A stretch of 29,766 nucleotides of DNA from Armatimonadota bacterium (GTDB lineage: Bacteria > Armatimonadota > Zipacnadia > Zipacnadales > UBA5352). Positions within the stretch are counted from its first letter, which is position 1. Each line of letters starts with the position of its first letter. The notes under the pieces were generated by a model that saw nothing but the letters and a program-made list of their open reading frames with translations, made no database searches and was not told the DNA's origin. Made by a program: the position numbers and the translations under genes. Of this stretch, positions 5,421 to 27,695 are shown piece after piece. The stretch covers positions 1 to 29,766 of the forward strand of contig JAYENL010000196.1 in NCBI GenBank assembly GCA_034722055.1. Direction: 5' to 3'.

Positions 5421-5452
5421 GTTCTACCGACTGGAATTCGCGAGGTGGCCTT

Positions 5453-5703
5453 GGCAGCACCCAGATTCATGTGCCTGTCCTCTGTACTGACGCCGCCGAT
5501 GCCCGCGGAGGGGCCGCCTGAGGAGCGCATGCCCTTTATGCGCGACGAAGCCGGCCCGCGACCCCACGAGACAGAACGGCCGGGCCGGCTTCGGCTCCAG
5601 CAAACCACGCTGGAGCCTCAGGCGGCCCCTCCCCTCCTACCACCGGCATTCCGACAGTCCGCTCCCCGGCCCTCGCGCTGGGCACACGAATCTGGATGCT
5701 GCA
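5453..5703 (+). mobile_element. MITE copy 1 (251 bp) with perfect 9-bp TSD GGTGGCCTT
   Basis: Ends GGCAGCACCCAGATTCATGTGCC ... GGCACACGAATCTGGATGCTGCA (imperfect TIRs); GGTGGCCTT at 5444-5452 and 5704-5712; homologous to 21871-22146 and 27268-27499. Confidence 0.92.
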
Positions 5704-5720
5704 GGTGGCCTTCGGTCGGG

Positions 5721-5750
5721 TTGCGCAGCGCCGGGAGGCGGTGCTATAAT
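5721..5750 (+). promoter_or_regulatory. Extended -10 sigma70 promoter for yebC
   Basis: TTGCGC (5721-5726), 18-bp spacer ending in TGC, TATAAT (5745-5750). Confidence 0.8.
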
Positions 5751-5792
5751 CAAGACCCGAACGCAACCCCCCGATGCGGAGGAGTGGCTGCG

Positions 5793-6557
5793 TTGGCAGG
5801 GCACTCAAAGTGGGCGAATCGGGTCCACCGCAAGACGCGACAGGATGCCAAGCGCTCGAAGATCTTCTCCAAGTACTCCCGCGCCATCATGGTGGCGGCG
5901 CGGGAGGGCGGCGGCAACCCCGACCACAATCCGAGCCTGCGGTCGCTGATCGACCAGGCCTCGGACGCGGAGATGCCCAAGGACAACATCGAGTACGCCA
6001 TCAAGCGCGGGCTGGGCGAGGTGGAGGGGGTCGAGTTCGAGGCCGTCCGCTATGAGGGCTACGGCCCGGGCGGCGTGGCGATGCTCATCGAGTGCGTCAC
6101 CGATAACAACCAGCGCACGGTGGCCGAGGTGCGGAACGTGATGAGCAAGCGCGACGGGAAGCTCAGCGGCGCCGGCACCGTCACCTGGCTGTTCGAGCAG
6201 AAGGGCGTCATCACAATTCCCCGATCCGGGTCCGACTATGATACCGTGTTTCTGACCGCGGCCGACGCCGGCGCGGAGGACATCGTGGACGAGGATGAGG
6301 AGTACTGGGAGGTCCGCACCGCCATGGAGGACTTCCACACCGTCCGCGAGGCTCTCAAGGAGGAGGGGCTGCCCATCGAGCGGGCTGAGCTGTCGATGAT
6401 TCCCACCAGCACGGTCGAGGTCCCCGAGAAGGAGGTCAACAAGCTCCTGGGCCTGCTGGAGGACCTGGAGGACCACGACGACGTTCAGCATGTCTACGCG
6501 AACTTCGAGGTCTCCGACGAGGCTCTGGAGGCCTACGAGGCGGCGCACGCCGACTGA
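5793..6557 (+). CDS. yebC: YebC/PmpR family protein
   Basis: (M)AGHSKWAN, YEGYGPGGVA, TDNNQRT, LEDHDDVQHVYAN; TTG start after a GGAGGAG RBS. Confidence 0.96.
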   Translation: MAGHSKWANRVHRKTRQDAKRSKIFSKYSRAIMVAAREGGGNPDHNPSLRSLIDQASDAEMPKDNIEYAIKRGLGEVEGVEFEAVRYEGYGPGGVAMLIECVTDNNQRTVAEVRNVMSKRDGKLSGAGTVTWLFEQKGVITIPRSGSDYDTVFLTAADAGAEDIVDEDEEYWEVRTAMEDFHTVREALKEEGLPIERAELSMIPTSTVEVPEKEVNKLLGLLEDLEDHDDVQHVYANFEVSDEALEAYEAAHAD

Positions 6558-6600
6558 CAGCCGCACCCCCTGCCGACACGCTGCGATCCGAGGTGCCCTC

Positions 6601-7383
6601 GTGTCCGAGATACGTGACTGGAAGCTGTTCGAGACCAACCTGGGCCGCGCCGAGCAGATCCCCTATGAGGTGGCGGTGTTGCCCATCGGCGCCATGGAGG
6701 CGCACAACCTCCACCTTCCGTACGGCACCGACAGCTACGAGGTGGAGGCCATCGCCGACCGGGCCTGCGCTCGAGCCTGGCAGCAGGGCGCCGAGGTGCT
6801 GCTGCTGCCCACCATCCCGGTGGGCGTGAATGAGAACACCCTGGGCTTCCCCTGGACGCTGAGCTTCAAGCCCACCACCATCCTGCAGATCATGCGCGAT
6901 ATCGTCTCCTCTCTGGAGCACCATCGTCTCCTCAAGCTCCTGGTGCTCAACGGCCACGGGGGCAATGAGCTGAAGCCCTTCCTGCGCGAGCTGTTCCGCG
7001 AGAGCGAGGTGCAGATGGTGCTGGTGGACTGGTGGACGGTAGACCCGGAGGGCTTCGAGACCATCTTCGACAAGCCCGGCGAGCACGCCGGTGAGATGGA
7101 GACCTCCCTGATGCTGCACCTCCGCCCGGACCTGGTGGAGATGGAGCGGGCAGACGAGGGCAGGACCCGCGAGGCGCACTTCACGGGGATGAGGGAGGGC
7201 TGGGCGTGGATCGCGCGGCCCTGGGACAAGCTCACCCATCACAGCGGCGTTGGCGACCCCTCAGCGGCGACGGCCGAGAAGGGAGAGCAGTTCGTGGAGC
7301 GGTGCGTGACGAGGATCGCCCAGCTCATCGTGGAGATGGCCGAGGAGCCCATGGACGACTGGTACCCCTACGAGGCGGATTAG
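6601..7383 (+). CDS. Creatininase / creatinine amidohydrolase family protein
   Basis: PIGAMEAHNLHLPYGTD, LNGHGGN and HAGEMETS metal-binding motifs; GTG start after GAGGTG. Confidence 0.92.
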   Translation: MSEIRDWKLFETNLGRAEQIPYEVAVLPIGAMEAHNLHLPYGTDSYEVEAIADRACARAWQQGAEVLLLPTIPVGVNENTLGFPWTLSFKPTTILQIMRDIVSSLEHHRLLKLLVLNGHGGNELKPFLRELFRESEVQMVLVDWWTVDPEGFETIFDKPGEHAGEMETSLMLHLRPDLVEMERADEGRTREAHFTGMREGWAWIARPWDKLTHHSGVGDPSAATAEKGEQFVERCVTRIAQLIVEMAEEPMDDWYPYEAD

Positions 7384-7399
7384 CCTCCGCGCCGACCGA

Positions 7400-10051
7400 T
7401 CATGCCCCCCGCTGGCCTTCGAGGAAGCGCGCGATCTCGTCTGCGGCCCGCACGCCGTCGGCGACCGCCTGCACCACCGTGTCCCCGCCGTTGACGATGT
7501 CCCCGCCGGCGTAGACGCCCTGTCGCGAGGTGCGCGTGGAGTCCGCCTCGGTGGCGATGAGCCCGCGCTCGGTCAGCGCCACGCCCTGCAGCCACCGCTG
7601 CAGGTCGGCCGGCGTCCGCTGGCCGATGGCCTCGATGGCGAGATCGACCTCCACGACGCGCTCGGAGCCCTCCTGCACGATCGGCCGACGCCGCCCGCTC
7701 TCATCGGGCTCGCCGAGGACGGTGCTGGCCACCCTGACGCCGCGGAGCCTGCCGTCATCCGCCACATAGCCCAGCGGCTGGGTGAGCAGCAGAAAGTGCA
7801 CACCCTCCTTCAGGGTCCGGTCGCGCTCCTCCGGCCACGCCGGCATCTCCGGGAAGGAGCGGCGGTAGATGAGGTAGACGTCGCGTGCGCCGCCGCGGCG
7901 GGCCGTGACGGCGGCGTCCAGCGCGGTGTTGCCGCCACCGAGCACCGCGACGCGCGGCGGGACCTCCATCGGCGCGTCGCTCTTGGCGCGGCGCAGGAAG
8001 CCCAGGACATCCACCACGCCCTCGGCCGGCCGCTGAGCGCCCGGAAGCGAGACGCTCTCGGTCAGCCCTATCCCCACGAAGACGGCGTCGAAGCCCTGGT
8101 CGAAGAGGTCATCGATGGTCAGGTCGTCGCCGACGCGGGTGCCCAGACGCCACTGCAGCCGGTCATGATCGCAATCCTCGAGGATCGCGGCCACCTCCGC
8201 CGCCGCGGCGTCGGGCTCCAGGCGAGCGGTGGGGATGGTCGCAGAGGCGATGCCGCCGGGCGCCTCGCCAGCGTCGATGATGGTGACGTTCAAGCCCTCC
8301 TCCAGCAGCCGGATGGCGCACGTGATGCCGGCTGGACCGGCGCCGATGACGGCCACGCGCTCGTCGCGGACCTGCTCGGGCCGCTCCAGCCGCGTCCAGC
8401 CCTTCTCGCGCGCGAGCTCGCAGACGTAGCGCTGGATCAGCCTGATGGGCAGCGGGCCGTCGCCGATATGCCGCTGCACGCACTCCCCCTCGCACTGCGT
8501 CTCGGCCGGGCAGACGTAGGCGCAGAGCTCGGGCAGCGGGTTGGTCTCGCGCAGCACCTCGTAGGCGCGCCGCTCGCGTCCGTCGGCGACCGCGGACACG
8601 AAGCCGGGGATATCCACGCCGGCCGGACAGCCCGTCTGGCAGGTGGGGGCGTGGCACTCCCGGCAGACCGCCGCCAGCTCGCGCATGACAGTGGGGTTGT
8701 GCGCCTGCCCCTCGCGGAAGATCGGCTCGTAGACCTCCCAGTCGCGGACCACGCAGCCCGCCCGGCCGCCATCGCGCATGATCTGCGTGCAGGACGAGCA
8801 GGTGATGCACAGCTTCGTCGGCGTCAGCGCGCGCTGCTGGATGATCTCGCGCGCGAAGTCCGGATGCGCCAGGGCCATGCGCCCCCAGCCGGCGCTGACC
8901 GCTTCGCCCCGCTCCACCAGCGCCGCGGCCACGTGCGGCGAGAACTCGCGCAGCCAGGTGAAGCCGGTGGCCACCAGGGGCATCCCGACCTGCCCGGCGA
9001 GCTCCCCGTGCAGCTCCACCATGGTGGCGATGTTCGCCAGGGGGTGCTCTTCAGGGGTGTAGCCGCCGCTCTCGTGGGTGTCATATGGCCGCTCGACGTG
9101 CGGGTTGTAGTAGGGGCTGCCGTAGGCGACGTTGACGAGGCAGACGCCCAGCTCCTGCAGCTCGCGGATCAGCCGCACCGGCTCGGTGAGGTCCGGCTCC
9201 ATGCTCCGGTCGCGGGCCATGCCGAAGCCGTAGGGGTAGGGCATGGCATCGTAGACGCTCAGGCGGGTGGTAACTGCGATCTCGGGGACCTGCTCCCGGA
9301 TCCTCGCGACGATCTCCCGGAGCAGGCGCGTGCGGTTCTCGTAGCTGCCACCGTAGCGGCTGCCCTGGCGGGTGAAGGCGTTGAGCAGCTCGTAGAGGAG
9401 GTAGCCGTGACAGGCCTTCACGTCCACGGCGTCGAAGCCGGCCTCCAGCGCGCAGCGGGCGGCCTCCACGTAGGCCTGCTGCAGCTCGTCCAGCTCCTCG
9501 TCGCTGATGACCGGATAGTCATCGGGCAGGTCGTGGCGGGGATCGAGCACGGGGTGGCGGTAGGCGATGACCGGCGCCGGGGAGCTTTCGGGCTTGGAGT
9601 AGCGGCCGGAGTGGGTGAGCTGGACAACCACGACCGGGTCATGGCCCTCGCCGAACTGTTCGGCGGCGCACTCGGCGATGGTGCCCCGCAGCCGGGCGAA
9701 GTCCTCCACAGTGCCCTGATGCAGCCAGAGCTGGCGGGGGTTGGCGCGGCCGCGGTGCACCACGGCGGTGGCCTCCAGCCAGATCAGCCCCGCGCCGCCG
9801 CGCGCGAAGCGCTGGTAGCGCCGGAAGGTCAGCGCCTCGGGGGCGCCCCGCGCGGAGCCGTCGCAGCCCTCGATGGGATGGATGGCCACGGCGTTGGGCA
9901 TCGAGAGCGGGCCGGCCTTGGCGGGCTCGGCCAAGGCGGCCACGTTCTCGGAGTACGGTAAAGAGAGGCCGAGATCGTCGAGCCTCGCCCGGATCTCTGC
10001 CCACGAGTCATAGCTGAACTGCTCGTGTTCGGATGGTCGCCTGACCTCCAT
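7400..10051 (-). CDS. NADH:flavin oxidoreductase (Old Yellow Enzyme barrel) fused to a GltD/NfnB/DPD-like Fe-S flavoprotein
   Basis: GGAGLIWLEAT, QLTHSGR, KACHGYLL, YGGSYENRTR; CITCSSC cluster; CRECHAPTCQTGCP and CAYVCPAETQCEGEC; VIGAGPAG; VLGGGNTALD; YAGGDIVNG. Confidence 0.9.
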   Translation of the reverse strand: MEVRRPSEHEQFSYDSWAEIRARLDDLGLSLPYSENVAALAEPAKAGPLSMPNAVAIHPIEGCDGSARGAPEALTFRRYQRFARGGAGLIWLEATAVVHRGRANPRQLWLHQGTVEDFARLRGTIAECAAEQFGEGHDPVVVVQLTHSGRYSKPESSPAPVIAYRHPVLDPRHDLPDDYPVISDEELDELQQAYVEAARCALEAGFDAVDVKACHGYLLYELLNAFTRQGSRYGGSYENRTRLLREIVARIREQVPEIAVTTRLSVYDAMPYPYGFGMARDRSMEPDLTEPVRLIRELQELGVCLVNVAYGSPYYNPHVERPYDTHESGGYTPEEHPLANIATMVELHGELAGQVGMPLVATGFTWLREFSPHVAAALVERGEAVSAGWGRMALAHPDFAREIIQQRALTPTKLCITCSSCTQIMRDGGRAGCVVRDWEVYEPIFREGQAHNPTVMRELAAVCRECHAPTCQTGCPAGVDIPGFVSAVADGRERRAYEVLRETNPLPELCAYVCPAETQCEGECVQRHIGDGPLPIRLIQRYVCELAREKGWTRLERPEQVRDERVAVIGAGPAGITCAIRLLEEGLNVTIIDAGEAPGGIASATIPTARLEPDAAAAEVAAILEDCDHDRLQWRLGTRVGDDLTIDDLFDQGFDAVFVGIGLTESVSLPGAQRPAEGVVDVLGFLRRAKSDAPMEVPPRVAVLGGGNTALDAAVTARRGGARDVYLIYRRSFPEMPAWPEERDRTLKEGVHFLLLTQPLGYVADDGRLRGVRVASTVLGEPDESGRRRPIVQEGSERVVEVDLAIEAIGQRTPADLQRWLQGVALTERGLIATEADSTRTSRQGVYAGGDIVNGGDTVVQAVADGVRAADEIARFLEGQRGA

Positions 10052-10160
10052 GGTGCGCCGGATGCTCCAATCTCAGTCGGAATGCATGCCGTGCCAGGCG
10101 CAAGCGTCCCGGTGATGACTGCCTGCCAGCGAGGGCTCTCCTTCTGCATGGGGCCTGCGC

Positions 10161-11273
10161 TCAGGTGATGGCGTCGCCGGTATCGGGGTCAAAGAGGTGG
10201 GAGCGCTGGAGGTTCAGCACCAGCTTCAGCGGCTGGCCCTCCTGCGCCCCGGTGCTGCTGTCGAGGCTTGCAACCAGGCTGTGCTCGCCGGCCTTGAGAT
10301 ACACCACGGACTCGGCGCCCATGGGCTCAACGACCTCGACAAGCGCGGAGATGCAGTTGTCGTCCGTGGGCGGCACCGGCCCGGGGAGGGCGGCGTCGTG
10401 CATGTCGGTGGGGCGGACGCCGAAGACGATGGGCTCGCCCACACGGGCCTGGACCTCGTCCCGGTGGGCGATGGCCTCGGGCAGTTCCACCCGCACGCCG
10501 GACCCCTCCAGCACGGTCTCGCCGTCGGCCTGCACCAGGCGGGCGTCCAGGAAGTTCATCGGCGGGCTGCCGATGAAGCCGGCGACGAAGCGGTTGGTGG
10601 GGTGGTCGAAGATCTGCTGAGGCCTGTCGCACTGCTGCACCTCGCCGCCGCGCATGACGGCGATGCGATGGCCCATGGTCATGGCCTCAACCTGATCGTG
10701 GGTCACGTAGATGGTGGTGATCCCCAGGCGCTGGTGCAGCTTGATGAGCTCCGCGCGGGTCTGTATCCGCAGCTTGGCATCCAGATTCGACAGGGGCTCA
10801 TCCATCAGGAAGACCGCCGGCTCTCTGACCACCGCCCGGCCCACCGCCACACGCTGGCGCTGGCCCCCGGAGAGCTGCGCCGGCCGGCGGTCGAGAAGCT
10901 CCTCGATGCCCAGCATGTCGGCGGCATCGTGGACCCGATCGTCGATCTCGGCCTTGGGGAACTTGCTCAGCCGCAGGCTGAAGGCCATGTTATCGTAGAC
11001 CGTCATGTGCGGGTAGAGGGCGTAGTTCTGGAAGACCATGGCGATGTCGCGGTCTTTGGGGGAGAGGTTATTGACGCGGCGCCCGTCGATGTAGACGTCC
11101 CCAGAGGTCGGCTCCTCGAGCCCCGCGATCATGCGCAGAATGGTGGTCTTGCCACAGCCTGAAGGGCCCACCAGCACAAGGAACTCGCGGTCTTCGACCT
11201 CCAGGTCAATGCCCCTGACGGCCTCCGTCTGCCCGAACCGTTTGGAGAGATTCGCCAGCCGAACCTGCGCCAT
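10161..11273 (-). CDS. Carbohydrate ABC transporter ATP-binding protein (UgpC/MsmX/MalK family)
   Basis: Walker A GPSGCGKT, VFQNYALYPHM, LSGGQRQR, DEPLSNLDAKLR, C-terminal TOBE region; ATG at 11273 after AGGAG. Confidence 0.95.
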   Translation of the reverse strand: MAQVRLANLSKRFGQTEAVRGIDLEVEDREFLVLVGPSGCGKTTILRMIAGLEEPTSGDVYIDGRRVNNLSPKDRDIAMVFQNYALYPHMTVYDNMAFSLRLSKFPKAEIDDRVHDAADMLGIEELLDRRPAQLSGGQRQRVAVGRAVVREPAVFLMDEPLSNLDAKLRIQTRAELIKLHQRLGITTIYVTHDQVEAMTMGHRIAVMRGGEVQQCDRPQQIFDHPTNRFVAGFIGSPPMNFLDARLVQADGETVLEGSGVRVELPEAIAHRDEVQARVGEPIVFGVRPTDMHDAALPGPVPPTDDNCISALVEVVEPMGAESVVYLKAGEHSLVASLDSSTGAQEGQPLKLVLNLQRSHLFDPDTGDAIT

Positions 11274-11354
11274 GTGCTCCTGCCTCCGGCGGCCCCGCCC
11301 GCCTGCGATCAGCCCCTCATGAGGGCCACGAACGGTATGGGTGAGCAGGCAGAG

Positions 11355-11383
11355 ATTCTCCCACAGGGCCCCCGCGCTGTCAA
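11355..11383 (-). promoter_or_regulatory. Probable sigma70 promoter for the ABC ATPase
   Basis: Minus strand TTGACA, 17-bp spacer ending in TGG, GAGAAT; the -35 box overlaps the stop codon of the upstream hydrolase. Confidence 0.55.
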
Positions 11384-12822
11384 GCGTCCGGCTCCTCTGC
11401 GACGATGGCGGATACGGTGGTCTCAACGACCTCGTTGCCATTGCTGTTGAGGGCCACCACACGGATCTGGTGGGGACCGGGAGCTGCGTACTGGGTGTCC
11501 CACGAGCAGCGGAAGGGCTGCTGATTCGTCATGGCCTTGACCTCGCCGTCAAGGTAGAACATGACGATATCCACGTCCACGGCCGCCCCGGCCTCCGCCA
11601 CAATCTCCACCTGGCCGGTCACCTGATGGGGGGGCGCCCCGCGGATGGCGACGTCCAGGCCCCCGCGAGCCACCGGCCCCAGCCTCGCCAGGGCCAGGGG
11701 GTGCTCGGTCGGCGGCGGCTCCACCTCCGCCGCCTCCGCGACTCCTCCGCCGGGCTCCTCGGGCGCCAGAGGTTCCGTGGCCGGCGGCAGCTCCAGCGGC
11801 CCGGCCGGCTGGGCCTCGGCCGGCTGACGCTCGGGCGCCATCGGCGGCAGGGCGGCCACCATCTCAGAGACGTCCGGCACGCGGCCGAGGAACCAGGGGT
11901 CGGCGATGAGCCTCCGATAGCGCTCCAGCACCGCCGACGAGCCGGTCAGGGAGTAGTTGTTGCTGGCCAGGCCGGTGCCTATGGCGTCCACGCAGAACCA
12001 GTTGATCATCTTCACGCGCGGGAACCGCGTAGGGAGTGCCTCGTAGATGCGCGTCATCTGCCGCAGCGCCATGTCCGTGACGTCCCGGCCGCACGCCGCG
12101 CAGTAGTGGGTGGCGGCGTACTCGCAGATGGCGATGGGCTTGCGGCCGGCGTAGCGATCGTAGACGTATCGCAGCAGCTCTCGGGGGTCGTCGTTGGAGG
12201 GCTTGGTGATGTCGCCGTCGTAGTGGTGGACGCTGTAGATGTTCACACCCACCCAGTCAACCCACTCGTCGCCGGGGTAGTAGTCCTCGATGGTGGCCTG
12301 GGGGGTAGCGAAGGGGCACCACACCAGGATGACGTTGGGGGCCAGCTCGCGGAAGACGCTGGCAACCAGCCGCCACTTGCGAATGTACTCCTGGGGGTGG
12401 CCCGAGTACGCCTGCCACGTCCCGTTCATCTCCGAGGCGTAGCGGAGGAAGATGGGGCCCTCGGTGCGGGCGGCCGCCTCCGCCCACCCGCGGAGGTAGT
12501 CGTCATCGCGGACGGGCTCCAGGCCCCCGTTGGGCTCCCAGGCGATGTGCGGCAGGATGCCACGCGCGTGCAGCTCGCGGACCCATCGGAACGGGAACGG
12601 CGCACCGTAGCCCACGTAGCGGAAGTAGGTGGCGTGCGGTTTGCCGACGAGCTCCTCGAAGGCCCCGATGTCGCCGTCGAGAGCCTCATCCAGCTCGATG
12701 TACGCGCCGACGTAGCAGCCCTCGGCCGGGATATAGCCCGCCGCGAAGAGCGGCTGCCAGGCTACCGCCAGCAGCACCGTTGCCGCCAGGATGCGAGTTA
12801 TCGATGATTGCAGCATACCCAT
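11380..12822 (-). CDS. Secreted GH26-like glycoside hydrolase with Pro/Glu linker and C-terminal Ig-like domain
   Basis: Signal peptide; HIAWEP, LRYASEMNGTW (acid/base Glu), YYPGDEWVDWVG, KPIAICEY (nucleophile); C-terminal MFYLDG..PF..SWDT..GPHQIRVVA. Confidence 0.85.
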   Translation of the reverse strand: MGMLQSSITRILAATVLLAVAWQPLFAAGYIPAEGCYVGAYIELDEALDGDIGAFEELVGKPHATYFRYVGYGAPFPFRWVRELHARGILPHIAWEPNGGLEPVRDDDYLRGWAEAAARTEGPIFLRYASEMNGTWQAYSGHPQEYIRKWRLVASVFRELAPNVILVWCPFATPQATIEDYYPGDEWVDWVGVNIYSVHHYDGDITKPSNDDPRELLRYVYDRYAGRKPIAICEYAATHYCAACGRDVTDMALRQMTRIYEALPTRFPRVKMINWFCVDAIGTGLASNNYSLTGSSAVLERYRRLIADPWFLGRVPDVSEMVAALPPMAPERQPAEAQPAGPLELPPATEPLAPEEPGGGVAEAAEVEPPPTEHPLALARLGPVARGGLDVAIRGAPPHQVTGQVEIVAEAGAAVDVDIVMFYLDGEVKAMTNQQPFRCSWDTQYAAPGPHQIRVVALNSNGNEVVETTVSAIVAEEPDA

Positions 12823-12855
12823 AAGTACACAGCGGCCCGCAGGGCCGCCATCGTG

Positions 12856-12885
12856 ATTCTACTGCACGTGGGCTGATGCCGTCAA
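12856..12885 (-). promoter_or_regulatory. Probable sigma70 promoter for the GH26-like gene
   Basis: Minus strand TTGACG-18 bp-TAGAAT. Confidence 0.6.
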
Positions 12886-12949
12886 CGGCGGCGATCGCGG
12901 GGTACGAAGCCGGAGTGCCGGCGTAACGCGCGGCAACAGCCATCGCATC

Positions 12950-13084
12950 CTGGCAAGCCGAGCCCTCGCTAGGCCATTCCATCTTTGGAAAGCCGGCGCC
13001 CTCGCCGGCTTGTGGCGCGCAGCGCCACTGAATCCTTGGCCCGCTCAGGCCAACGGCGCCCGGGCGCGGGCGCCCGGGCCCCAG
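12950..13084. repeat. Composite REP unit B, copy 2
   Basis: 40 bp (12990-13029) identical to 2592-2631; similar upstream sequence; inverted CTGGG-type hairpin GCCCGGGCG-CGGG-CGCCCGGGC-CCCAG at 13058-13084. Confidence 0.75.
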
Positions 13085-13150
13085 TCCCGATCTGGTTCGC
13101 GGGCCGCTCGCCTCCCGAAACAGTGAAACGGTTCCAGCGCCAGGAACGGC

Positions 13151-13240
13151 GCACGCACAGGAGTGTGCGTGCCACGGAACGACAGACGGCAACGACCGGC
13201 TGGAAACGGCCGGCGGGTCTGAAGACGCCGCTGCTACGGA
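13151..13240. repeat. Composite REP unit C, copy 2
   Basis: GCACGCACA-GGAG-TGTGCGTGC-CAC, linker GGAACGACAGACGGCA, second hairpin ending CTAC; colinear with 5260-5350. Confidence 0.75.
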
Positions 13241-13294
13241 CGACGACCGACGGGAAACGGCCGGCGGCTGCCTTGCGGGCCAGTCGTTGATCAT

Positions 13295-13330
13295 CAGCTT
13301 GACGCTTGCGACTTGCAGCTTCCAGCCTCC
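13295..13330 (-). repeat. Degenerate 7-bp tandem array
   Basis: Reverse complement GGAGG-CTGGAAG-CTGCAAG-TCGCAAG-CGTCAAG-CTG. Confidence 0.55.
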
Positions 13331-13369
13331 AGAGACGCCGCGTCTATCGACGACCACGCCTGACGACAC

Positions 13370-18641: not shown

Positions 18642-18645
18642 GCGA

Positions 18646-19278
18646 CTACTTCACCAACTCTATGAAGAACATCGCGGCCACGATCCAGGCGGAGATGATG
18701 TTCAGATGCTCGCCATTGTCGATGACCCGCTTCCAGCAGAAGCTGCCATTGCCGGTGCCGTTGGGTGGCTTCGGGAGCCACCGTGCCACCTGCCGGCAGT
18801 AGCGCTCGAACTTGGTGCCGAACTTCTCGCGCAGGAAGTCCTCCTCACAGGCGACTGTGGGGGCGTGAGTGGCCAGCCACAGGAGCAGGAGGATGGGCAC
18901 GGCGATGAGTCGTCCGGACATGAGGCCGAAGGCCACGACTACCAGGAGGTTGGCGAGATACAGCGGGTTGCGGCACCAGCCAAAAGGCCCGCCGGTGACC
19001 AGCGTCTTGTCCTTGTCCAGGTAGCCCGCACATATGAGGCGGATGAGGTAGGCGGCGGCCATGATGAATGCGCCGCACGCCAGCAGGGCCGGGGTGGGGC
19101 GCGCGAAGGCCACCAGGATGAAGGCCGCCAGCAGGCCCAGGAAGGTGCGGCGGCGCACCAGGAAGGCGCGCACGTGGGCCAGCATCCGGTGGTATCCCTC
19201 CGCGGCACTGGCCGCGGCATCGAGCGACCGCTGCGTGGCGACGTTTAGCTGGCTGTCAGTCTCCGCGTAGTTGGTCAT
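18646..19278 (-). CDS. Isoprenylcysteine carboxyl methyltransferase (ICMT/PEMT) family membrane methyltransferase
   Basis: LVTGGPFGWCRNPLY and EEDFLREKFGTKFERYCRQVARWLP signature segments; several TM helices. Start codon uncertain. Confidence 0.85.
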   Translation of the reverse strand: MTNYAETDSQLNVATQRSLDAAASAAEGYHRMLAHVRAFLVRRRTFLGLLAAFILVAFARPTPALLACGAFIMAAAYLIRLICAGYLDKDKTLVTGGPFGWCRNPLYLANLLVVVAFGLMSGRLIAVPILLLLWLATHAPTVACEEDFLREKFGTKFERYCRQVARWLPKPPNGTGNGSFCWKRVIDNGEHLNIISAWIVAAMFFIELVK

Positions 19279-20440
19279 CGCCCTCCACGTCAGTGCCCAT
19301 CATCTCAAACGCCATCGCTGCCACACGGTCGGAGACGCCCGGCTCCCCCAGCCGATGGCGCACTCGCGCCAACCCCTGAACCACCGCCTCTCGGCGACGC
19401 TCGTCGCCCAGGAGCTCCAAAACAGCCTCCGCGGTGCTCCCGGGCCGAGCCTGCCGGCCGACCAGCTCCGGAACGATCCGCTCGCCTGCGACTATGTTGG
19501 GCATTCCCACATGATCGACCCGGAACCTCCGAAGCAGCCTCTCCAGTCGCATCAGCCACGTGCCCCGGTAGATGATGACCATGGGGCAGAGGGCCGCGGC
19601 GGCCTCCAGAGTGGCGGTGCCCGCCGAGCTGACCACCACGTCCGCGGCGCGCACGATCTCCGTCACGCCCTCCAGCAGCAGCACGCGGTCCGCCAGGCCC
19701 GCTCTGCGCACCTGCCGCTCCAGGAGCCGCCTGGGGATCGAAGGCGCCACGGAGAGCACAAGGCCCACCTCGGGCACCTCCCGGGCGATACGCTTCGCAG
19801 CCCCCAGCATGACGGCGCCGTTGCAGCGGGCCTCCGCCGGGCGGCTGCCCGGGAGCATGCCCACCACCGGCACCTCGGGCCTCAGACCGAGGCTTTGGCG
19901 CAGGTGCGCACGCTCCTCGGCATGGGCAGGCTCGATGCGGTCCACCACCGGATGGCCGACCCAGCGGGCGTTGATGCCCGCCTCCCGGAGGCGCCCCTCC
20001 GACCACTGGAAGGGCGTGGCCACGCGGTCCACCAGTCCCGTCAGGGAGTGGTAGTCGGCATCGAGAGACCACGAGCGCGGCGGGAAGTAGTACAGGATCG
20101 GGCCGGGCAGCTCCCCGCGCAGCCTGCGGGCCAGTCGGACGTTGAAGGCCCCGAAGTCCATGAGAACCAGCAGGTCGGGGCGGAGTGAGACCAGATGGGC
20201 CGTGAGCTGGCGCATGCGGACCAGCAGCATGGGGACCCGCCGCAGCGACTCCACCACCCCGATGCCGCTCCATCCTGTGCTGTCGAAGCGCAGCTCGAAG
20301 CCGGCCTCACGCATTCTCCGCTGCCCGACGCCCAGCAGCCCGACCTGGCGCCGGCGCCGGAGGGCCTCGCCGAGCATGGCCGCGTGCTGATCGGCCGACG
20401 GCTCACCGGCGACTACGAAGACCTGCGGCGTGCGGTCCAT
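19256..20440 (-). CDS. lpxB: Lipid-A-disaccharide synthase
   Basis: VVAGEPSAD, MDFGAFN, WVGHP, LPGSR, AGTATLE, MPNIVAGERIVPEL. Confidence 0.93.
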   Translation of the reverse strand: MDRTPQVFVVAGEPSADQHAAMLGEALRRRRQVGLLGVGQRRMREAGFELRFDSTGWSGIGVVESLRRVPMLLVRMRQLTAHLVSLRPDLLVLMDFGAFNVRLARRLRGELPGPILYYFPPRSWSLDADYHSLTGLVDRVATPFQWSEGRLREAGINARWVGHPVVDRIEPAHAEERAHLRQSLGLRPEVPVVGMLPGSRPAEARCNGAVMLGAAKRIAREVPEVGLVLSVAPSIPRRLLERQVRRAGLADRVLLLEGVTEIVRAADVVVSSAGTATLEAAAALCPMVIIYRGTWLMRLERLLRRFRVDHVGMPNIVAGERIVPELVGRQARPGSTAEAVLELLGDERRREAVVQGLARVRHRLGEPGVSDRVAAMAFEMMGTDVEGDDQLRGD

Positions 20441-20468
20441 GTCCACGCTCGCCCCGCGCGCAGCGCCC

Positions 20469-21245
20469 TCAGTTCTCCTGCCGTCCCCGGCGCCCCTCGT
20501 CGATGCGCTCGATGAACTCCACGAACTCGCGAACCATCTCGGTGAGCGGGCCCTGCTGGCGCAGCGACGCGATGGCGTCGGAGGTGTTCTGGTCAGAGCG
20601 ATAGATGGTCCGGAAGGCCTGCCGCAGCGCCGCCTGGTCATCCTCGGCGACGTCGTGGCGGGCCAGGCCGATGGCGTTGATCCCCTGCAACTCGTTTCCC
20701 AACGCGGTGGTGAAGGGCGGGATGTCGCGGGTGACGCGGGACTGCCCCCCGATCATGCACATCCGACCGATGGTGACGTACTGGTGCAGGCCGGTGAAGC
20801 CGCCGATGACCACGCCATCGTGGATCACGCAGTGGCCGCTGATCCCGCTGAAGGAGGCGATCATGATGTCGCTGCCCATGCGCACGTTGTGCCCCAGATG
20901 CGAGTAGGCCATCAGGAAGTTGTCGTCGCCGACGATGGTCCTCTTCCCCGCACCGGTGGCGCGGTGAATGGTTACGTACTCCCGCAGGATGTTGTTGTCG
21001 CCGATCTCGACGAAGCTCTCCTCGCCGTCGAACTTGGCGTCCTGTGGGTCGGATCCGAGCACCACGCCGACGTCGAGGGTATTCCCCTTCCCGAGCGTGA
21101 CGTAAGGCTTTATGACGCAATAGGGGCCGATGCGCGTGCCGTCGCCGATCCGCACGCGATCGTGGACGATGGCGTAAGGCCCGACCTCCACGTCTCCACC
21201 CAGCTCCGCGCCGGCCTCGATGACTGCGGTTTCGTGAATCGCCAT
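20469..21245 (-). CDS. lpxA: UDP-N-acetylglucosamine O-acyltransferase
   Basis: IHETAVI, hexapeptide repeats, PQDAKF, REYVTIHRAT, MAYSHLGHN, LHQY, DIPPF. Confidence 0.96.
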   Translation of the reverse strand: MAIHETAVIEAGAELGGDVEVGPYAIVHDRVRIGDGTRIGPYCVIKPYVTLGKGNTLDVGVVLGSDPQDAKFDGEESFVEIGDNNILREYVTIHRATGAGKRTIVGDDNFLMAYSHLGHNVRMGSDIMIASFSGISGHCVIHDGVVIGGFTGLHQYVTIGRMCMIGGQSRVTRDIPPFTTALGNELQGINAIGLARHDVAEDDQAALRQAFRTIYRSDQNTSDAIASLRQQGPLTEMVREFVEFIERIDEGRRGRQEN

Positions 21246-21258
21246 GCCTTCCTCCAGG

Positions 21259-21714
21259 TCACTCAACCTCGGGGTGCTGCTCGGGCGCCCGTGCCAGCGC
21301 GAACATCAGCTCTGCCTCAGCGGCCACCTGATCGTCCACGGTAGCGACGCCCTTCACCTTGCCGATGCTGCCCTTGCGCCGGAGCATCTCCACCTCCAGA
21401 CGGATCTGGTCGCCTGGGATCACCTGCCGCCGAAAGCGGGCCTTGTCAACGCCGCCGAAGAGGGCGAGGCGGCTGTCATCGTGCTCCAGCTCGGCGTGCA
21501 GCAGCACTCCGCCGACCTGCGCCATGGCCTCCAGGATAAGCACGCCGGGCATGACGGGAGTCCCTGGCCAGTGGCCGGCGAACTGCGGCTCATTGGCGGT
21601 CACGTTCTTGATCCCTACGGCGCGCTGCCCAGGCTCAAGCTCCACGATCCTGTCCACCAGCAAAAAGGGGTAGCGGTGTGGGAGGATCTCCATGATGTCC
21701 TTGGCCTGAAGCAT
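21259..21714 (-). CDS. fabZ: 3-hydroxyacyl-ACP dehydratase
   Basis: [44 protein letters not shown] at 21714 after GGAGG. Confidence 0.97.
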
Positions 21715-21824
21715 CGGCAGGCGCCTCCAGTAAACACCTGGGCCGTCCCAGGCCCCACGGCCGGCATCTGCCAACACCGCGGTCCCACGACGGCCACTCA
21801 TGCCCGTCCGCGAAAGCCGCGGCG

Positions 21825-21854
21825 ATTATAGCAGAGCGCTCGAAGCACTGTCAA
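21825..21854 (-). promoter_or_regulatory. Consensus extended sigma70 promoter for the fabZ-lpx operon
   Basis: Minus strand TTGACA (21854-21849), 18-bp spacer ending in TGC, TATAAT (21830-21825). Confidence 0.88.
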
Positions 21855-21870
21855 ACCACAGACCCTGCCC

Positions 21871-22146
21871 GGCAGCATCCAGATTCATGTGCCTGTCCTC
21901 TGTACTGACGCCGCCGATGCCCGCGGAGGGGCCGCCTGAGGAGCGCATGCCCTTTATGCGCGACGAAGCCGGCCCGCAACCCCGAGACAGCGTCGCGAGG
22001 CGCTGCTCCGAACGGTGAACGGCCGGGCCGGCTTCGGCTCCAGCAAACCACGCTGGAGCCTCAGGCGGCCTCTCCTCTACTACCAGCGGCATTCCGACAG
22101 TCTGCTGCGCGGCCCTTGCGCTGGGCACACGAATCTGGATGCTGCG
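21871..22146 (+). mobile_element. MITE copy 2 (276 bp, longest) with degenerate 9-bp TSD
   Basis: GGCAGCATCCAGATTCATGTGCC ... GGCACACGAATCTGGATGCTGCG; flanks ACCCTGCCC (21862-21870) and GCCCTCCCC (22147-22155) match at 7/9. Confidence 0.9.
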
Positions 22147-22255
22147 GCCCTCCCCCCCCGGTGCGCACCTGGGCTGGGGGCGCCCCGCCCGCAGACGAGG
22201 ATTTGCAGATGCGCCCCCCGTCACAGATGGCATACTGGCGCCGAACTTCAGAGCG

Positions 22256-23269
22256 TTAGACCGTCGGTGGGCGAGGCGGTTGCGGCCTGGATGGCGGCGC
22301 TGCAGCGGTCTGCTCGTCGTGCGGGCGGCCGCGGTCGCGAAGGTGGTCGCGCAGCAGCCATCCGCCGGCCCCCAGGATGATAGCGATGGAGGCCACCTGG
22401 GCAACGGTCAGGGGCGCCAGCGGGGCAAAGATCTCTGCGCTGGCGCCGCGCCGGAAGTGCTCGATGGCGAAGCGGGCGACCGAGTAGAGCACGAAGTAGC
22501 TCAGCAGCAGGTGTCCGTCTCGGTGCAGGTGGCGGCGCAGAACCAGCAGGAGGGCGAAGATGAGGAGGCTGGCGGCGGCGGCGTAGAGCTGTGTGGGGTG
22601 CCGCGCCACCTGCCCGCCATCGACCGCCGGCAGGTGCACCCCCCATGGCATGGTGGTCGGCACGCCGTGGCAGCAGCCGTTGAGGAGGCAGCCCACCCTG
22701 GTGATGGCGTATCCCAGCGCTATGGACGGCGCCACCAGGTCGGCCACGCGCCAGAAGCCGATCCTCCGCCGCCCCAGGAACAGGGCGGCCGCCAGTATCC
22801 CGCCCAGCAGGCCGCCGTGGAAGCTCAGGCCGCCGCTCCATACCTCCCACGGCGCCCTGTGGCCCTGGGCGTACGTCTCCCACTGCAGGGCCACCGAGAG
22901 CGCCCGGGCGCCGATGACCGCGCCCACCAGGATGACGAGTGTGAGGTCGATGATGACGTCGGTGGTGAGCTGATCGTCACCGCGCGTGTCGTGCATCAGC
23001 CACAGCATGCCGGCGATGAAGCCCAGCATCAGCATGGTGCCCCACGCCCGGACCTGGATGGGCCCCCAGCGGCCCAGCATCCACCAGGCGGTCAGCCCGA
23101 TCGCTGCGCCCAGCGCCGCGATGCCCGCGATTCGCAGCGGGCGAGGCGCCATCCGCAGGCGCCGCTCCTCCACCACCTCCAGGAGGCCCCCCACCAGAGC
23201 CAGCGCCAGAGCCATGGCGGCCGCGGCCCAGGCCGGGAGCGGCCCGATCTCCAGCAGCACGGGATACAC
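22256..23269 (-). CDS. lgt: Prolipoprotein diacylglyceryl transferase
   Basis: (M)YPVL, GAVIGAR, GGLSFHGG, RVGCLLNGCCHG, HPTQLY, RFAIEHFR; GTG at 23269 after AGGAGGA. Confidence 0.9.
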   Translation of the reverse strand: MYPVLLEIGPLPAWAAAAMALALALVGGLLEVVEERRLRMAPRPLRIAGIAALGAAIGLTAWWMLGRWGPIQVRAWGTMLMLGFIAGMLWLMHDTRGDDQLTTDVIIDLTLVILVGAVIGARALSVALQWETYAQGHRAPWEVWSGGLSFHGGLLGGILAAALFLGRRRIGFWRVADLVAPSIALGYAITRVGCLLNGCCHGVPTTMPWGVHLPAVDGGQVARHPTQLYAAAASLLIFALLLVLRRHLHRDGHLLLSYFVLYSVARFAIEHFRRGASAEIFAPLAPLTVAQVASIAIILGAGGWLLRDHLRDRGRPHDEQTAAAPPSRPQPPRPPTV

Positions 23270-23273
23270 GGGT

Positions 23274-23774
23274 TCAGTCCTCCTCCTGATGGGAGGCACG
23301 GCGGGAGGCGGAGCCGGCGATGGTGGCGATGATCAGCAGTCCGGCGCCGACGGTGATGGCGATGTCGGCGATGTTGAAGATGGGCCAGAAGTGCAAGTCG
23401 ATGAAGTCAATGACGTAGCCCAGACGCAGGCGGTCGATGAGATTGCCCAGCGCGCCGCCGATGAGCAGGGCCACGGATACGGCCAGCAGTGGGCTGGCGG
23501 AGACGCGGTGTGCAACGAGGACCAGGACGGCAATGACGACGGCCGCCGTAGCCACCAGCAGGCTGGTGGCGGTCGGCAGCATGCCGAAGGCTCCACCGGT
23601 GTTCGTGGCCCAGGTGAGGCTGAGGTATGGCCCCAGCACGGGGACTGTGCCCACTGGCTTAAGGAGATGCACGGCGGCAAGCTTGGCAGCCTGGTCGGCC
23701 AGCAGGATGGCCGCCGCCGTGAGGTAGACCACCGGCGTGAGCCTGCGGGCCTCCGAGCCGGAGGCCGGGGTCAC
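23274..23774 (-). CDS. lspA: Signal peptidase II
   Basis: [35 protein letters not shown] start overlaps the upstream TGA. Confidence 0.96.
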
Positions 23775-24151
23775 CTTCCGGAGAGCCCGGCCCGGCATTC
23801 CTTGCAGAGAGTGGCCCATGGCAGGACACGCAGCCGCTTCTTCGTAATCGGCTTGCCGCAGTTGTCGCAGATTCCGTATGTGCCCTGCTCGATCTTCTCC
23901 AGAGCGGCGTTGACCTCATCGAGCTGCTCGCGCAACGACGCCCCCACCGCCATCGACTGGGCGCGATCCACGGTCTCCGTGGCGGCATCGCCGCCCGGCT
24001 CATCGAAGTCCTGACCGGCCTGCTCGGAGTGCAGTCGGTCGCGGCCGGCCGCCCTATCCTCGATGCGCTTGAGCTCGGACTGCAGCCGAGCCCGCTCCTC
24101 CTCCAGGGTCGCCTTGAACTTGTCTACGTCCAGCTTTCTCTTACGCGCCAC
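23771..24151 (-). CDS. TraR/DksA C4-type zinc finger protein
   Basis: Coiled coil with GDAATET tip; [22 protein letters not shown]. Confidence 0.92.
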
Positions 24152-24288
24152 CGTCGCTGACCTCCGATGCGCAATGGCCGGGCCGGCGGCAGTTTCTCCG
24201 GCCGGCCTGGACTACCTTCTCGGCGATGAACACCACCGCTTGGCGGAAGAGGCCTTGTCGCCCTCAACAGCCCTCGCTCCCCCGGTCC

Positions 24289-27093
24289 TCAGCCAGATAG
24301 AATACGACTTACCCGCTCCGCACACCTGCTACACAGCTCGGGATGCTCCTGGATCATCCCGGTGCTCTCCGCGCGCATCCAGCAGCGCGCGCACTTGTCG
24401 CCCGCCGCCAGCGATGCCTCGGCGTGCATTCCCGACGGCTCGTTGAACTCCTCCTCGGCCTCGGATATGTGATGCAGCTTTACATCCGAGACGATGAACA
24501 GGCTCCACAGGTCCTCCTCCAGGGCTTCCAGCACATCCCGTGCCGCGTCGCTGACGTAAAGGTCCAGCCTGGCCTCCATGGGGTTGGGCACCTCGCCGGA
24601 GTCCTTGGCCTCCTCCAGCGCCGCCGTGGCCACGCCACGCAGCCCCAGGAACTGCCTGTAGCGCTCGGCGAGATCCTCGTCCAGCAGGCTCTCGTCTCCC
24701 TCCGGCCAGTCGGCGAGCTGAACGCTGGCGGGCAGGGCCTCGTCCACCTCCCGCCGCATGTGCTGCCAGGCCTCCTCGGAGGTGAAGGTCAGCACCGGCG
24801 CCATCATCTTCACGATGGCCAGCAGCGTGCGCCACATGGCCGTCTGCGCGGACCGGCGGGCCGGAGAGTCCGCCAGGTCAGTGTAAAGCCGGTCCTTGAG
24901 CACATTGAGGTAGAACGCGCTCAGGTCCTGGTCGCAGAAGGCGTGCAGCTCCCGGTAGACGATGTGCAGGTCCCAGCGCTCGTAGGCGTCCGTGATGGCC
25001 CGGATGCGCCGCTGCAGGCGATCCAGCGCCCAGCGGTCGATCTCGCGCAGCTCGGCCACGGGTAGAGAGTCCTCAGACGGATCGAAGTCCTGAAGGTTCT
25101 GCAGCAGGAACCGCGTGGTGTTGCGGATTCGACGATAGGCGTCGGCCACCTGCTGGAAGATGCTGTCGGACAGCACCATCTTCTGGCGGAAGTCCGCGTA
25201 GGTGAACCACAGCCGCAGCACGTCCGCCCCGTATTGCTCGTAGACCTCCGCGGGGCTGATGATGTTGCCTCTGCTCTTGGACAGCTTCTGGCCGGTTTCG
25301 TCCACGAAGAAGCCGTGGCCGACCACGGTGCGGTAGGGCGCCGGGTCGCCCAGCGCCATGGCCACCCACAGGGAGGTCTGGAACCAGCACTGGTACTGGT
25401 CGTCGCCCTCCAGATACAGGTCGGCGGGGAAGTCCAGCTCCGGGTGGGGCCGCACCACACAGTAGTGCGAGCAGCCCGAGTCCACCCACACCGACATGAT
25501 GTCGGGCTCCTTGCGGAAGTGTGTTCCGTCGCAGCCGTCAGCGGGGCAGGTGGTGTTCTCGGGCAGAAGCTCCTCAGCCTCGCGCTCCCACCACACGTCG
25601 GCGCCGTGCTGGGCCACCAGGTCGCGGAGATGCTCGATGGTCTCGGGCGTGATGAGCGGCTCGCCGCACCTGGTGCAGTAGAAGACCGGGATGGGCACCC
25701 CCCAGGTTCGCTGGCGGGAGATGCACCAGTCGGGCCGGGACTCGATCATCCCGGAGATGCGACTCTCGCCCCACTCGGGGTTCCACTCCACACCTCTCAC
25801 GGCCTTCAGCGCCTTCTCCCGCAGCCTCTCGATGTCCATGAACCACTGTCTGGTGGCGCGGTAGATGACCGGCTGGTGACAGCGCCAGCAGTGGGGGTAC
25901 TCGTGCTCGATCTGGGCTTCGCCGATGAGGGCGCCCCGGCGGCGGAGGATGCCGGTGACGATCTCATTGGACTGGTCGGCGACCTCCCCCGCCAGCTCCT
26001 CGCCGGCCTCGGCGGTGTACCTGCCCAGGTCGTCGAGCGGGCTGACGATGTCCAGGTCGTAGGCCAGCGCGGTCTCATAGTCCTCCAGCCCGTGTCCCGG
26101 GGCGGTGTGCACCGCCCCCGTGCCGTCCTCGACCGTCACGTAGTCGGCCAGGACCACCGGCGACTGGCGGTCGTACATGGGGTGCTTCGTCACCAGCCCC
26201 TCCAGCTCCCCGCCCGTGAAGCGCGCCACGACCTGGTAGCGGGTGATCTGGCACTCCGCCATTGAGCGGTCCAGCAGCTCCTGGGCCAGGATGAAGTGGC
26301 CCCTGGGGGTGTCCACCAGCACATACTCCGCGCTCTCGGACAGCGCGATGGCGGTGTTGCCGGGGATGGTCCACGGAGTGGTGGTCCAGATCAGGAAGCT
26401 CACCGGCTCAGCAGGCGGCTCGTCCATGGGCAGGTGCTGCCTGTCGATGATCTCGAATGCCACGTAGATGGCGGGGGCGGGGCGGGTGGCGTACTCGATC
26501 TCGTCCTCCGCCAGCGCTGTCTCGCAGTGGTAGCACCAGTAGACCGGCCGGAGGGCGCGGTAGAGCAGGCCGGAGAGGGCGATCTTCCCGAAGGCCTTGA
26601 TCTGCCGGGCCTGATACTCGGGGCTCAGCGTCAGGTAGGGGTTGTCCCAGTCCCCCCGCACGCCGATGCGCTTGAACTGCTCCCGCTGAGTGTCCACGTA
26701 GCCCAGCGCCAGCTCCCGGCACAGGCGCCGCCACTGGAGCACGGGGACGTCATGCGGGAAGACGTTCCTCTCGCGCTGCACGCTCTGCTCGGTGGGCAGG
26801 CCCTGGGTGTCCCAGCCGGGGATATAGGGGCAGTCGAAGCCCCGCATGGTCTTGTACTTGATGGTGATGTCCTTGAGGATCTTGTTCAGCGCCTGGCCCA
26901 GGTGGATGTCGCCGTTGGCGTAGGGCGGGCCGTCGTGCAGGATGTAGGTGGGCGCGCCGGCGCGCAGCTCGCGCACCATCCCGTAGATGTCCATCTCCTG
27001 CCACATGCGCAGGATCTGCGGCTCGCGCTCGGCCAGGTTCCCCCGCATGGGGAAGTCGGTTCGGAGCAGGTTCAGCGTGTCCCGATAGTCCAT
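24289..27093 (-). CDS. ileS: Isoleucine--tRNA ligase (type 1, C-terminal zinc finger)
   Basis: MDYRDTLNL, HDGPPYANG, WTTTPWT, GTGAVHTAPGHG, DWCISRQR, KLSKS, KCARCW..LCSRC. Confidence 0.97.
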   Translation of the reverse strand: MDYRDTLNLLRTDFPMRGNLAEREPQILRMWQEMDIYGMVRELRAGAPTYILHDGPPYANGDIHLGQALNKILKDITIKYKTMRGFDCPYIPGWDTQGLPTEQSVQRERNVFPHDVPVLQWRRLCRELALGYVDTQREQFKRIGVRGDWDNPYLTLSPEYQARQIKAFGKIALSGLLYRALRPVYWCYHCETALAEDEIEYATRPAPAIYVAFEIIDRQHLPMDEPPAEPVSFLIWTTTPWTIPGNTAIALSESAEYVLVDTPRGHFILAQELLDRSMAECQITRYQVVARFTGGELEGLVTKHPMYDRQSPVVLADYVTVEDGTGAVHTAPGHGLEDYETALAYDLDIVSPLDDLGRYTAEAGEELAGEVADQSNEIVTGILRRRGALIGEAQIEHEYPHCWRCHQPVIYRATRQWFMDIERLREKALKAVRGVEWNPEWGESRISGMIESRPDWCISRQRTWGVPIPVFYCTRCGEPLITPETIEHLRDLVAQHGADVWWEREAEELLPENTTCPADGCDGTHFRKEPDIMSVWVDSGCSHYCVVRPHPELDFPADLYLEGDDQYQCWFQTSLWVAMALGDPAPYRTVVGHGFFVDETGQKLSKSRGNIISPAEVYEQYGADVLRLWFTYADFRQKMVLSDSIFQQVADAYRRIRNTTRFLLQNLQDFDPSEDSLPVAELREIDRWALDRLQRRIRAITDAYERWDLHIVYRELHAFCDQDLSAFYLNVLKDRLYTDLADSPARRSAQTAMWRTLLAIVKMMAPVLTFTSEEAWQHMRREVDEALPASVQLADWPEGDESLLDEDLAERYRQFLGLRGVATAALEEAKDSGEVPNPMEARLDLYVSDAARDVLEALEEDLWSLFIVSDVKLHHISEAEEEFNEPSGMHAEASLAAGDKCARCWMRAESTGMIQEHPELCSRCAERVSRILSG

Positions 27094-27221
27094 CCTCTGA
27101 TGTCCTCTGGGTGCTGTGGGGCGCAGACGACGTAGTGAAAGAGCCGCCGAGTCTCCGCGCACGGGATGCCCACGGAGACTCCGCGACCGAATGTACCGCC
27201 TATCAGTTGTCCGTCGGAAGT

Positions 27222-27251
27222 ATTGTACCACATTCATTGGATGGCTTTCAA
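27222..27251 (-). promoter_or_regulatory. Extended sigma70 promoter for the ileS operon
   Basis: Minus strand TTGAAA (27251-27246), 18-bp spacer ending in TGG, TACAAT (27227-27222). Confidence 0.82.
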
Positions 27252-27267
27252 CCCCCCGGAGCGTCGC

Positions 27268-27499
27268 TGCAGCATACAGATTCGTGTGCCCAGCGCGAGG
27301 GCCGCGGAGCGGACTGTCGGAATGCCGGTGGTAGTAGGGGAGGGGCCGTTCGCCGTTCGGCGCACGGCCTCGCGATGCTGTCTCGTGGGGTCGCGGGCCG
27401 GCTTCGTCGCGCATAAAGGGCATGCGCTCCTCAGGCGGCCCCTCCGCGGGCATCGGCGGCGTCAGTACAGAGGACAGGCACATGAATCTGGATGCTGCC
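27268..27499 (-). mobile_element. MITE copy 3 (232 bp) with perfect 9-bp TSD GAGCGTCGC
   Basis: Reverse-oriented copy; GAGCGTCGC at 27259-27267 and 27500-27508; 46-bp internal deletion relative to copies 1 and 2. Confidence 0.92.
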
Positions 27500-27695
27500 G
27501 AGCGTCGCGATTCGGGCCCGCGAGGAGGTGTCGCCGAAGGAAGGAGGAACGGCGTCAGGAGCCGTCTGGTGGGGATGGAGCGCTCCGTGAGAGAGCGCCC
27601 GGCGTGAACCTGAGCGTGGGCGGACTGAGCTTCGAAAGCGGGCCAGGGGGGAAGCGGTATGCCCACCACATACCATCCCGAACGGAGGAGAGGGC

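Follow-up and report, generated by a model that had tools for sequence, protein, structure and literature searches.

A promoter-adjacent MITE family in an Armatimonadota genome and its likely ISKra4-family partner

In the genome of an Armatimonadota bacterium (G000), we identified a family of elements whose ends recur 15-18 nt from the -35 box of predicted sigma70-type promoters. The elements are short, multi-copy and non-coding, with TIRs and target duplications, and the family is thus a MITE family. Judged from the TIR, which is shared with transposase elements of related genomes, the MITEs very probably owe their mobility, in trans, to an ISKra4-family (p-MULT 4) transposase of the Mutator-like DDE type. 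Three copies are located in the window, the whole stretch of 29,766 nucleotides analyzed here. The G000 assembly comprises 6.1 Mb in 330 contigs, with 68% G+C and a completeness of 92.7%.

Copy 1 of the window (5453..5703, + strand, 251 bp) has its right end towards the yebC promoter, copy 2 (21871..22146, + strand, 276 bp) its left end towards the fabZ-lpx promoter, and copy 3 (27268..27499, - strand, 232 bp) its right end towards the ileS promoter. Between their two 23-bp TIRs, copies 1, 2 and 3 have 20, 21 and 20 matching positions, respectively. Copy 1 is flanked by target duplications at 5444..5452 and 5704..5712 (both +, 9/9 match), and copy 3 by a promoter-side duplication at 27259..27267 and a far-side duplication at 27500..27508 (both +, 9/9 match). 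The promoter-side 9-mer of copy 2 (21862..21870, +) matches its far-side 9-mer (22147..22155, +) at 7/9 positions, a partial match that a neighbouring deletion may have left by chance; on the far side the related genome G001 has ~60 bp more, and the terminal base of copy 2 there is atypical. The promoter-like site of yebC (5721..5750, +) consists of the -35 box TTGCGC, an 18-nt spacer, a TGn and the -10 box TATAAT, and begins 17 nt from copy 1. The site of the fabZ-lpxA operon (21825..21854, -; TTGACA, 18 nt, TGn, TATAAT) and that of ileS-lspA-lgt (27222..27251, -; TTGAAA, 18 nt, TGn, TACAAT) are each 16 nt from copies 2 and 3, respectively. The genes concerned are yebC/pmpR (5793..6557, +, start codon inferred), fabZ (21259..21714, -), which is the first gene of a lipid A cluster, and ileS (24289..27093, -); lipid A genes are present in G000, the genome of the window. 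The elements and their duplications, the three distances, the gene names, and the TGn and 18-bp spacer of all three targeted promoters had been described in a first-pass annotation of this DNA, and all were confirmed. Its statement that untargeted promoters lack this combination is true locally, as six other promoter-like sites in the window are without TG plus an 18-bp spacer and canonical -10 box.

The interior of the elements is a strongly folding palindrome (z -8.3). In copy 2 the inner palindromic core (21918..22075, no strand assigned) is a dispersed repeat that recurs at many other loci; dozens of G000 loci carry it without the MITE TIRs, and 13 of 17 family genomes have a match. Since the core repeat is found without TIRs, the element would consist of TIRs around a captured repeat rather than derive from simple deletion of a transposase gene. 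A stretch at 22090-22113, ~33 nt inside the right end and with equivalents in other copies, resembles the TIR of a second repeat family; the MITE may be a nested composite. No known RNA family was matched in an Rfam search of the window, and no internal promoter was found on either strand of copy 2. Other dispersed intergenic repeats in the window are located at 5254-5325 and 13146-13217, at 2557-2685 and 12955-13083, and at 5383-5421; one of them lies directly upstream of copy 1 and is also present at the fabZ site of G001. Only 0.12 copies would be expected in 29.8 kb, and the window has three (Poisson p 0.00024 per window, ~206 windows), a mild clustering that perhaps results from promoter density or local hopping.

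Across G000, 38 TIR ends were identified, representing 24 elements, of which 14 are complete (209-283 bp) and 10 have a single end. A TIR-like match in C106 without the MITE interior and the diverged C248:42487-42709, which lies outside the mismatch filter, were dropped before counting. The family copies have a median ungapped identity of 94% over the first 100 nt. With regard to the terminal G...C that is conserved in the p-MULT superfamily, the terminal base is G at 19/19 left ends and at 9/19 right ends, the remaining right ends having T (nine) or C (one). Duplications in the 14 complete copies comprise eight perfect 9-bp, one perfect 8-bp, three at 7-8/9, one at 6/8 and one crossed case. 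In the crossed case the flanks of C288:30516-30793 pair with the contig-edge ends C197:7288 and C101:10740, which points to misassembly or recombination between copies. The TIR pattern occurs in eight named records, of which five bear the label Candidatus Zipacnadia or Armatimonadia; the other three belong to unrelated taxa and were treated as chance. Genes behind targeted promoters include rimP, pnp, an aspartokinase-type kinase, a LeuA/CimA-type synthase, an ArsR regulator, a tRNA-Ser/Arg cluster and tRNA-Pro. In the tRNA cluster behind a targeted promoter at C115:26458-27101 (L226), a tRNA-Arg was called with the unusual anticodon GCG.

All promoters reported here are predicted, as two-box consensus matches scored with our own weights. 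Within 0-79 nt of the 38 G000 ends there were 23 promoter hits, two of them at 15 nt, ten at 16 nt, three at 17 nt, one at 18 nt and seven elsewhere. The fixed spacing first read from the window copies thus extends to further genomic copies as a peak at 15-18 nt that includes 16/38 ends; when the flanks were shuffled 1000 times, the mean was 0.044 ends and the count never exceeded 2. Other 4-nt distance windows contained 0-2 hits each, and in a random-position control a promoter was present at 15-17 nt in 11/20000 cases. A promoter at 15-18 nt was found for 11/14 complete and 5/10 single-end copies. The copies without one are C115:31003, C288:30516 and C316:34529 among the complete elements, plus five single-end copies, and for most single-end copies without a promoter hit the second flank lies beyond the contig. 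Eight left and eight right ends face a promoter in G000, so that either end may indeed do so as proposed from the window, and the 16 target 9-mers are without consensus, which upholds the earlier view of insertion as positional and not based on target sequence. Where a TTG stands at 15-18 nt, a -10 box follows at 15/18 ends in G000 and 20/28 in G007, a related genome. Good promoters at off-peak distances (8, 11 and 21-35 nt) were seen at C41:221, C115:31280, C131:11736 and C250:219 and at L029, L062, L070, L085 and L196; these distances possibly reflect subsequent insertion or deletion events at one hot site.

The MITEs of G007 have the TIR of the G000 family and a different interior. Forty regions were counted, corresponding to 43 of 44 exact TIR matches, with the remaining match (C142) examined separately. 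A promoter was located at 14-18 nt in 25/40 loci, the other 15 being without one, and paired copies had 9-bp duplications in 22/33 cases, 8-bp in three, 10-bp in one and none in seven. Two G007 targets, L128 and L129, have a TGnTATAAT box at the usual distance and no recognisable -35 box. Older diverged relatives with the same core were observed in G001 (L052, L054 and L055) and as the C248 element of G000 excluded above; by eye, the three in G001 lie ~16-18 nt from promoter-like sites.

Two further proposals of the first-pass annotation were not upheld. The TGn with an 18-bp spacer is not the target determinant, as the combination occurs in 3/16 G000 targets, all in this window, and in 5/41 of the targets pooled from two genomes. 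Taken singly, TG precedes the -10 box in 21 of the pooled 41 and is approximately twofold enriched over the 20-25% of predicted promoters, while the 18-bp spacer (8/41) is not enriched over the 25-28% of predicted G000 promoters; this background consists of predicted promoters of G000 only and includes false promoters. Replacement of UP elements was likewise not supported because the displaced upstream DNA is GC-rich, with only 20-45% A+T in the displaced 20 nt in 11/11 copies examined. Approximately 1% of predicted promoters have at least 70% A+T upstream. The proposal that the promoters are left intact by insertion did stand: the core promoter and the 15-18 nt upstream of the -35 box remain in place at the targets. 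Essential operons would thereby keep their promoter and the MITE could spread at low cost.

In relatives, the window promoters are conserved without the element at all loci viewed (fabZ 5/5, yebC 5/5, ileS 4/4). The promoters are therefore older than the insertions, and the fact that they are conserved speaks for real promoters. A clean empty site was found at rimP in G001, where both flanks match, the element is absent and one exact copy of the 9-mer is present at the same distance. At two further sites G001 lacks the element and its upstream DNA has diverged. Empty sites with a single 9-mer, as anticipated by the first-pass annotation, were thus obtained for rimP but not for yebC, fabZ and ileS, as the upstream DNA of G001 at the three window sites and the two further ones has either diverged or is truncated.

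The notion that the MITE derives, as a non-autonomous form, from a Mutator-like DDE element that targets promoters is supported by relatives in which the MITE TIR is found on two-ORF transposase elements. Parts of the expected autonomous IS with the same ends were found in such relatives but not in G000: the window MITE ends are 96-100% identical over 22-24 nt to the right end of an IS in G007. At three contig edges of G007 the TIR comes after the C-terminus of the transposase, and at five there are related left ends before the N-terminus. Five of these eight IS ends are 15-16 nt from a promoter, and two of the other three adjoin a MITE end 8-10 bp away, as expected if one site was hit twice. 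Six related genomes have pieces of Mutator-like ORFs attached to this TIR type. The partner IS is known from contig-edge fragments and from one more distant relative, the near-complete G002:C52, whose ORF2 has the DDE triad and D(2)H when aligned to ISKra4 proteins scoring over the cut-off. This ORF2, a half-gene below the 205-bit cut-off, scores 154 bits with the ISKra4 profile (NF033572) against 92 with that of ISLre2 (NF033529) and 16 with ISH6, which argues against the ISLre2/TnGBS-type partner originally put forward. ORF1 of the same element scores higher with ISH6 (43.8 bits) than with ISKra4 (32.4). A 27-row tree, containing no named ISKra4- or ISMich2-group rows, left the group unresolved and placed ORF2 weakly (91/58) with P0024 and two ISAzba1-group proteins. 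Based on these comparisons, the partner is most likely an ISKra4-family (p-MULT 4) transposase. An IS256-type partner was also considered and rejected, PF00872 being without a match in G000.

Partner coding DNA had no match in the 92.7% complete G000, and the partner IS is absent from the assembly, being either unassembled or lost. A complete partner gene was not recovered from protein databases, viral contigs, plasmids or 400 genomes of the phylum, nor from a metagenome TIR scan (three loci). In G005:C13 (L194) and G010:C252, an internally deleted partner element with both ends lies between two promoters; at L194 there is a promoter 17 nt away on each side, one of them upstream of a tRNA cluster.

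At a T/C run just after the second Cys pair, the partner ORF2 occupies the +1 frame in 4/4 elements shown, a set that does not include the linker of the multi-copy G007 element. In addition, 26/37 short relatives stop within 30 residues of the second Cys pair motif, and together these features suggest a programmed shift. An IS630 element is known to undergo slippage at T5C5 (PMC6211511, available part), and the shifts listed for the ISKra4 family in the accessible text of PMC3942029 are of the -1 type; a literature search covering few subscription papers revealed no further description of ISKra4 frameshifts. A column between domains N1 and N2, by our own identification from the alignment, is probably the Asp of the published targeting signature. 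It contains Asp in 14/16 rows (one has Glu), including G002:C52. In the partners with the TIR closest to that of the MITE, this otherwise conserved position is Gln (G007:C142 and G425) or Pro (G005/G010), which may set them apart from the ISKra4 group. We tentatively raise the possibility, itself rather doubtful, that the partner represents an undescribed p-MULT 4 branch with a conserved +1 slip at T5-6C4-5 after the zinc finger and loss of the Asp in its nearest members, still targeting at 16 nt, including extended -10 promoters without a -35 box. If so, docking to RNA polymerase would use some surface outside the published motif, and the natural variants would allow dissection of the proposed transposase-polymerase model.

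The habit itself has precedents. According to the available part of PMC3942029, 13 ISKra4-group elements with near-perfect IRs target sigmaA promoters in both orientations in many phyla, including diderms, and some group members have a frameshifted transposase. The members named there are ISKra2/4/5/6, ISTvi1, ISDesp4, ISHhy1 and ISLfe1/2, and the features given are 8-9-bp duplications, 18-39-bp TIRs matched at 83-100% and a distance of 13-17 bp from sigmaA promoters. The MITE resembles this group in having 15/38 G000 ends at 15-17 nt and one at 18, in using both orientations and in IRs matched at 20-21/23 positions, and its IRs and duplications are within the p-MULT ranges (18-39 bp and 8-9 bp). 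It differs from the group elements in being non-coding, and its partner lineage in needing a +1 shift after the second Cys pair where -1 shifts are listed. The MITE TIR string had no match among the IRs listed in Table S1 of that paper, as far as accessible. Targeting of this kind in a high-GC diderm, which the first-pass annotation had proposed, does apply here but is not new, since the same source reports the ISKra4 group outside Firmicutes and in both orientations. With ISLre2/TnGBS (p-MULT 3), as described in the accessible sections, the family has in common insertion 15-17 bp upstream of the -35 box, 8-9-bp duplications and a Mutator-like DDE transposase; those elements, mostly from Firmicutes, target sigmaA promoters in one orientation with the right IR by the promoter, unlike the MITE with its eight left and eight right ends. 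Like the ISMich2 group (p-MULT 4), the partner has its transposase split into two ORFs, and unlike ISMich2, for which the same text gives a -1 shift and no promoter targeting, it has a +1 shift and strong targeting. ISLre2 and ISKra4 elements are reported at 50-250 bp from genes in the part of PMC9208149 available. The general description of bacterial MITEs in the accessible text of PMC11602168 as short, non-coding and intergenic elements with TIRs and duplications, moved in trans, fits the family; a word search of that text gave no ISKra4, ISLre2 or sigma, and 'promoter' in the references only. The available text of PMC8024623 and bioRxiv 2025.07.22.666184 contains nothing on promoter-targeting MITEs of the ISKra4 family, and no paper describing a MITE of this family was found in a literature search that covered few subscription papers.

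We suggest that the partner transposase would bind both near-identical 23-bp TIRs of the MITE, which, by analogy with the family (PMC3942029, available part), may be excised or copied out as a circle. Insertion would be symmetric, as also suggested by the family in that text, because the two TIRs are nearly identical. The transpososome probably docks on promoter-bound sigma70 RNA polymerase, as indicated by the -10 box at most TTG-bearing ends and by the two extended -10 targets without a -35 box, and would cut with a 9-bp stagger at around -52 to -44. The available part of PMC3942029 cites Brochet 2009 for the polymerase model. Alternatively, the same element and family could be involved with a transposase that reads promoter DNA, either the -35 TTG or local shape, without RNA polymerase. 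In agreement with direct reading, the spacing varies about as little relative to the -35 box as relative to the -10 box (sd 0.74 vs 0.81 nt), the insertion distance does not track spacer length, and distances of at least 17 nt occur at 13/16 non-TTGA compared with 8/25 TTGA boxes (Fisher p 0.004, post hoc). We nevertheless consider it unlikely, as most targets have a -10 box, 40 nt from the cut, two are extended -10 promoters with no -35 box to be read, and TG is about twice as common in targets as in predicted promoters.

The remaining alternatives concern the source of the transposase or the origin of the spacing. Mobilization by the intact ISKra4 element of G000 itself (C213) is suggested by its being the only gene of this family detected in G000 (285 bits, above the cut-off), by its position 16 nt from a promoter, and by a TIR that has GG and CCAGATT in common with that of the MITE. 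The C213 ends otherwise differ, however, and match a second, separate G000 repeat family, whereas the MITE TIR is almost exactly matched by the other IS lineage in relatives, whose G002 member is only 33% identical to C213; we regard this source as very unlikely. The C213 element (C213:170-1630, L001) lies 16 nt upstream of the -35 box of a gene that by eye resembles an anaerobic ribonucleotide reductase; it is arranged in tandem with one end of a different element, the two sharing the 9-mer between them. For the second repeat family with C213-like ends, 11 of 75 regex hits, many of them spurious, were 16-18 nt from promoters. It is extremely unlikely that an unrelated IS4/IS5-like transposase moves the MITE: in L098 the TIR does occur near a transposase assigned to IS4/IS5 by eye, but it reads away from that gene, and the TIR type is joined to Mutator-like pieces in the six genomes mentioned above. 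We give almost no credence to random insertion followed by selection for harmless intergenic sites. As such a process would predict, the copies lie between genes, and for some of them a promoter at the fixed distance is missing, yet selection would not yield a peak 4 nt wide with 16/23 of the hits within 0-79 nt, nor the same peak in the MITEs of G007, whose interior is different, and at the ends of autonomous IS.

Taken as mobilized by an ISKra4-family transposase, the MITE family is a clean new example of the published ISKra4-group habit and not a new kind of system. The general picture is unchanged by the finding, and what most merits pursuit is the partner lineage. While the targeting rule has been published, its mechanism is only proposed, and the literature searched shows no later test. 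The family offers a natural data set with 41 targets in two genomes, a sufficient minimal 23-bp end, targets that lack a -35 box, and partner variants that differ in whether they carry the candidate signature residue. As a minimal promoter-adjacent inserter, the MITE could serve as a tool, and the element ends would mark primary promoters in a poorly studied lineage.
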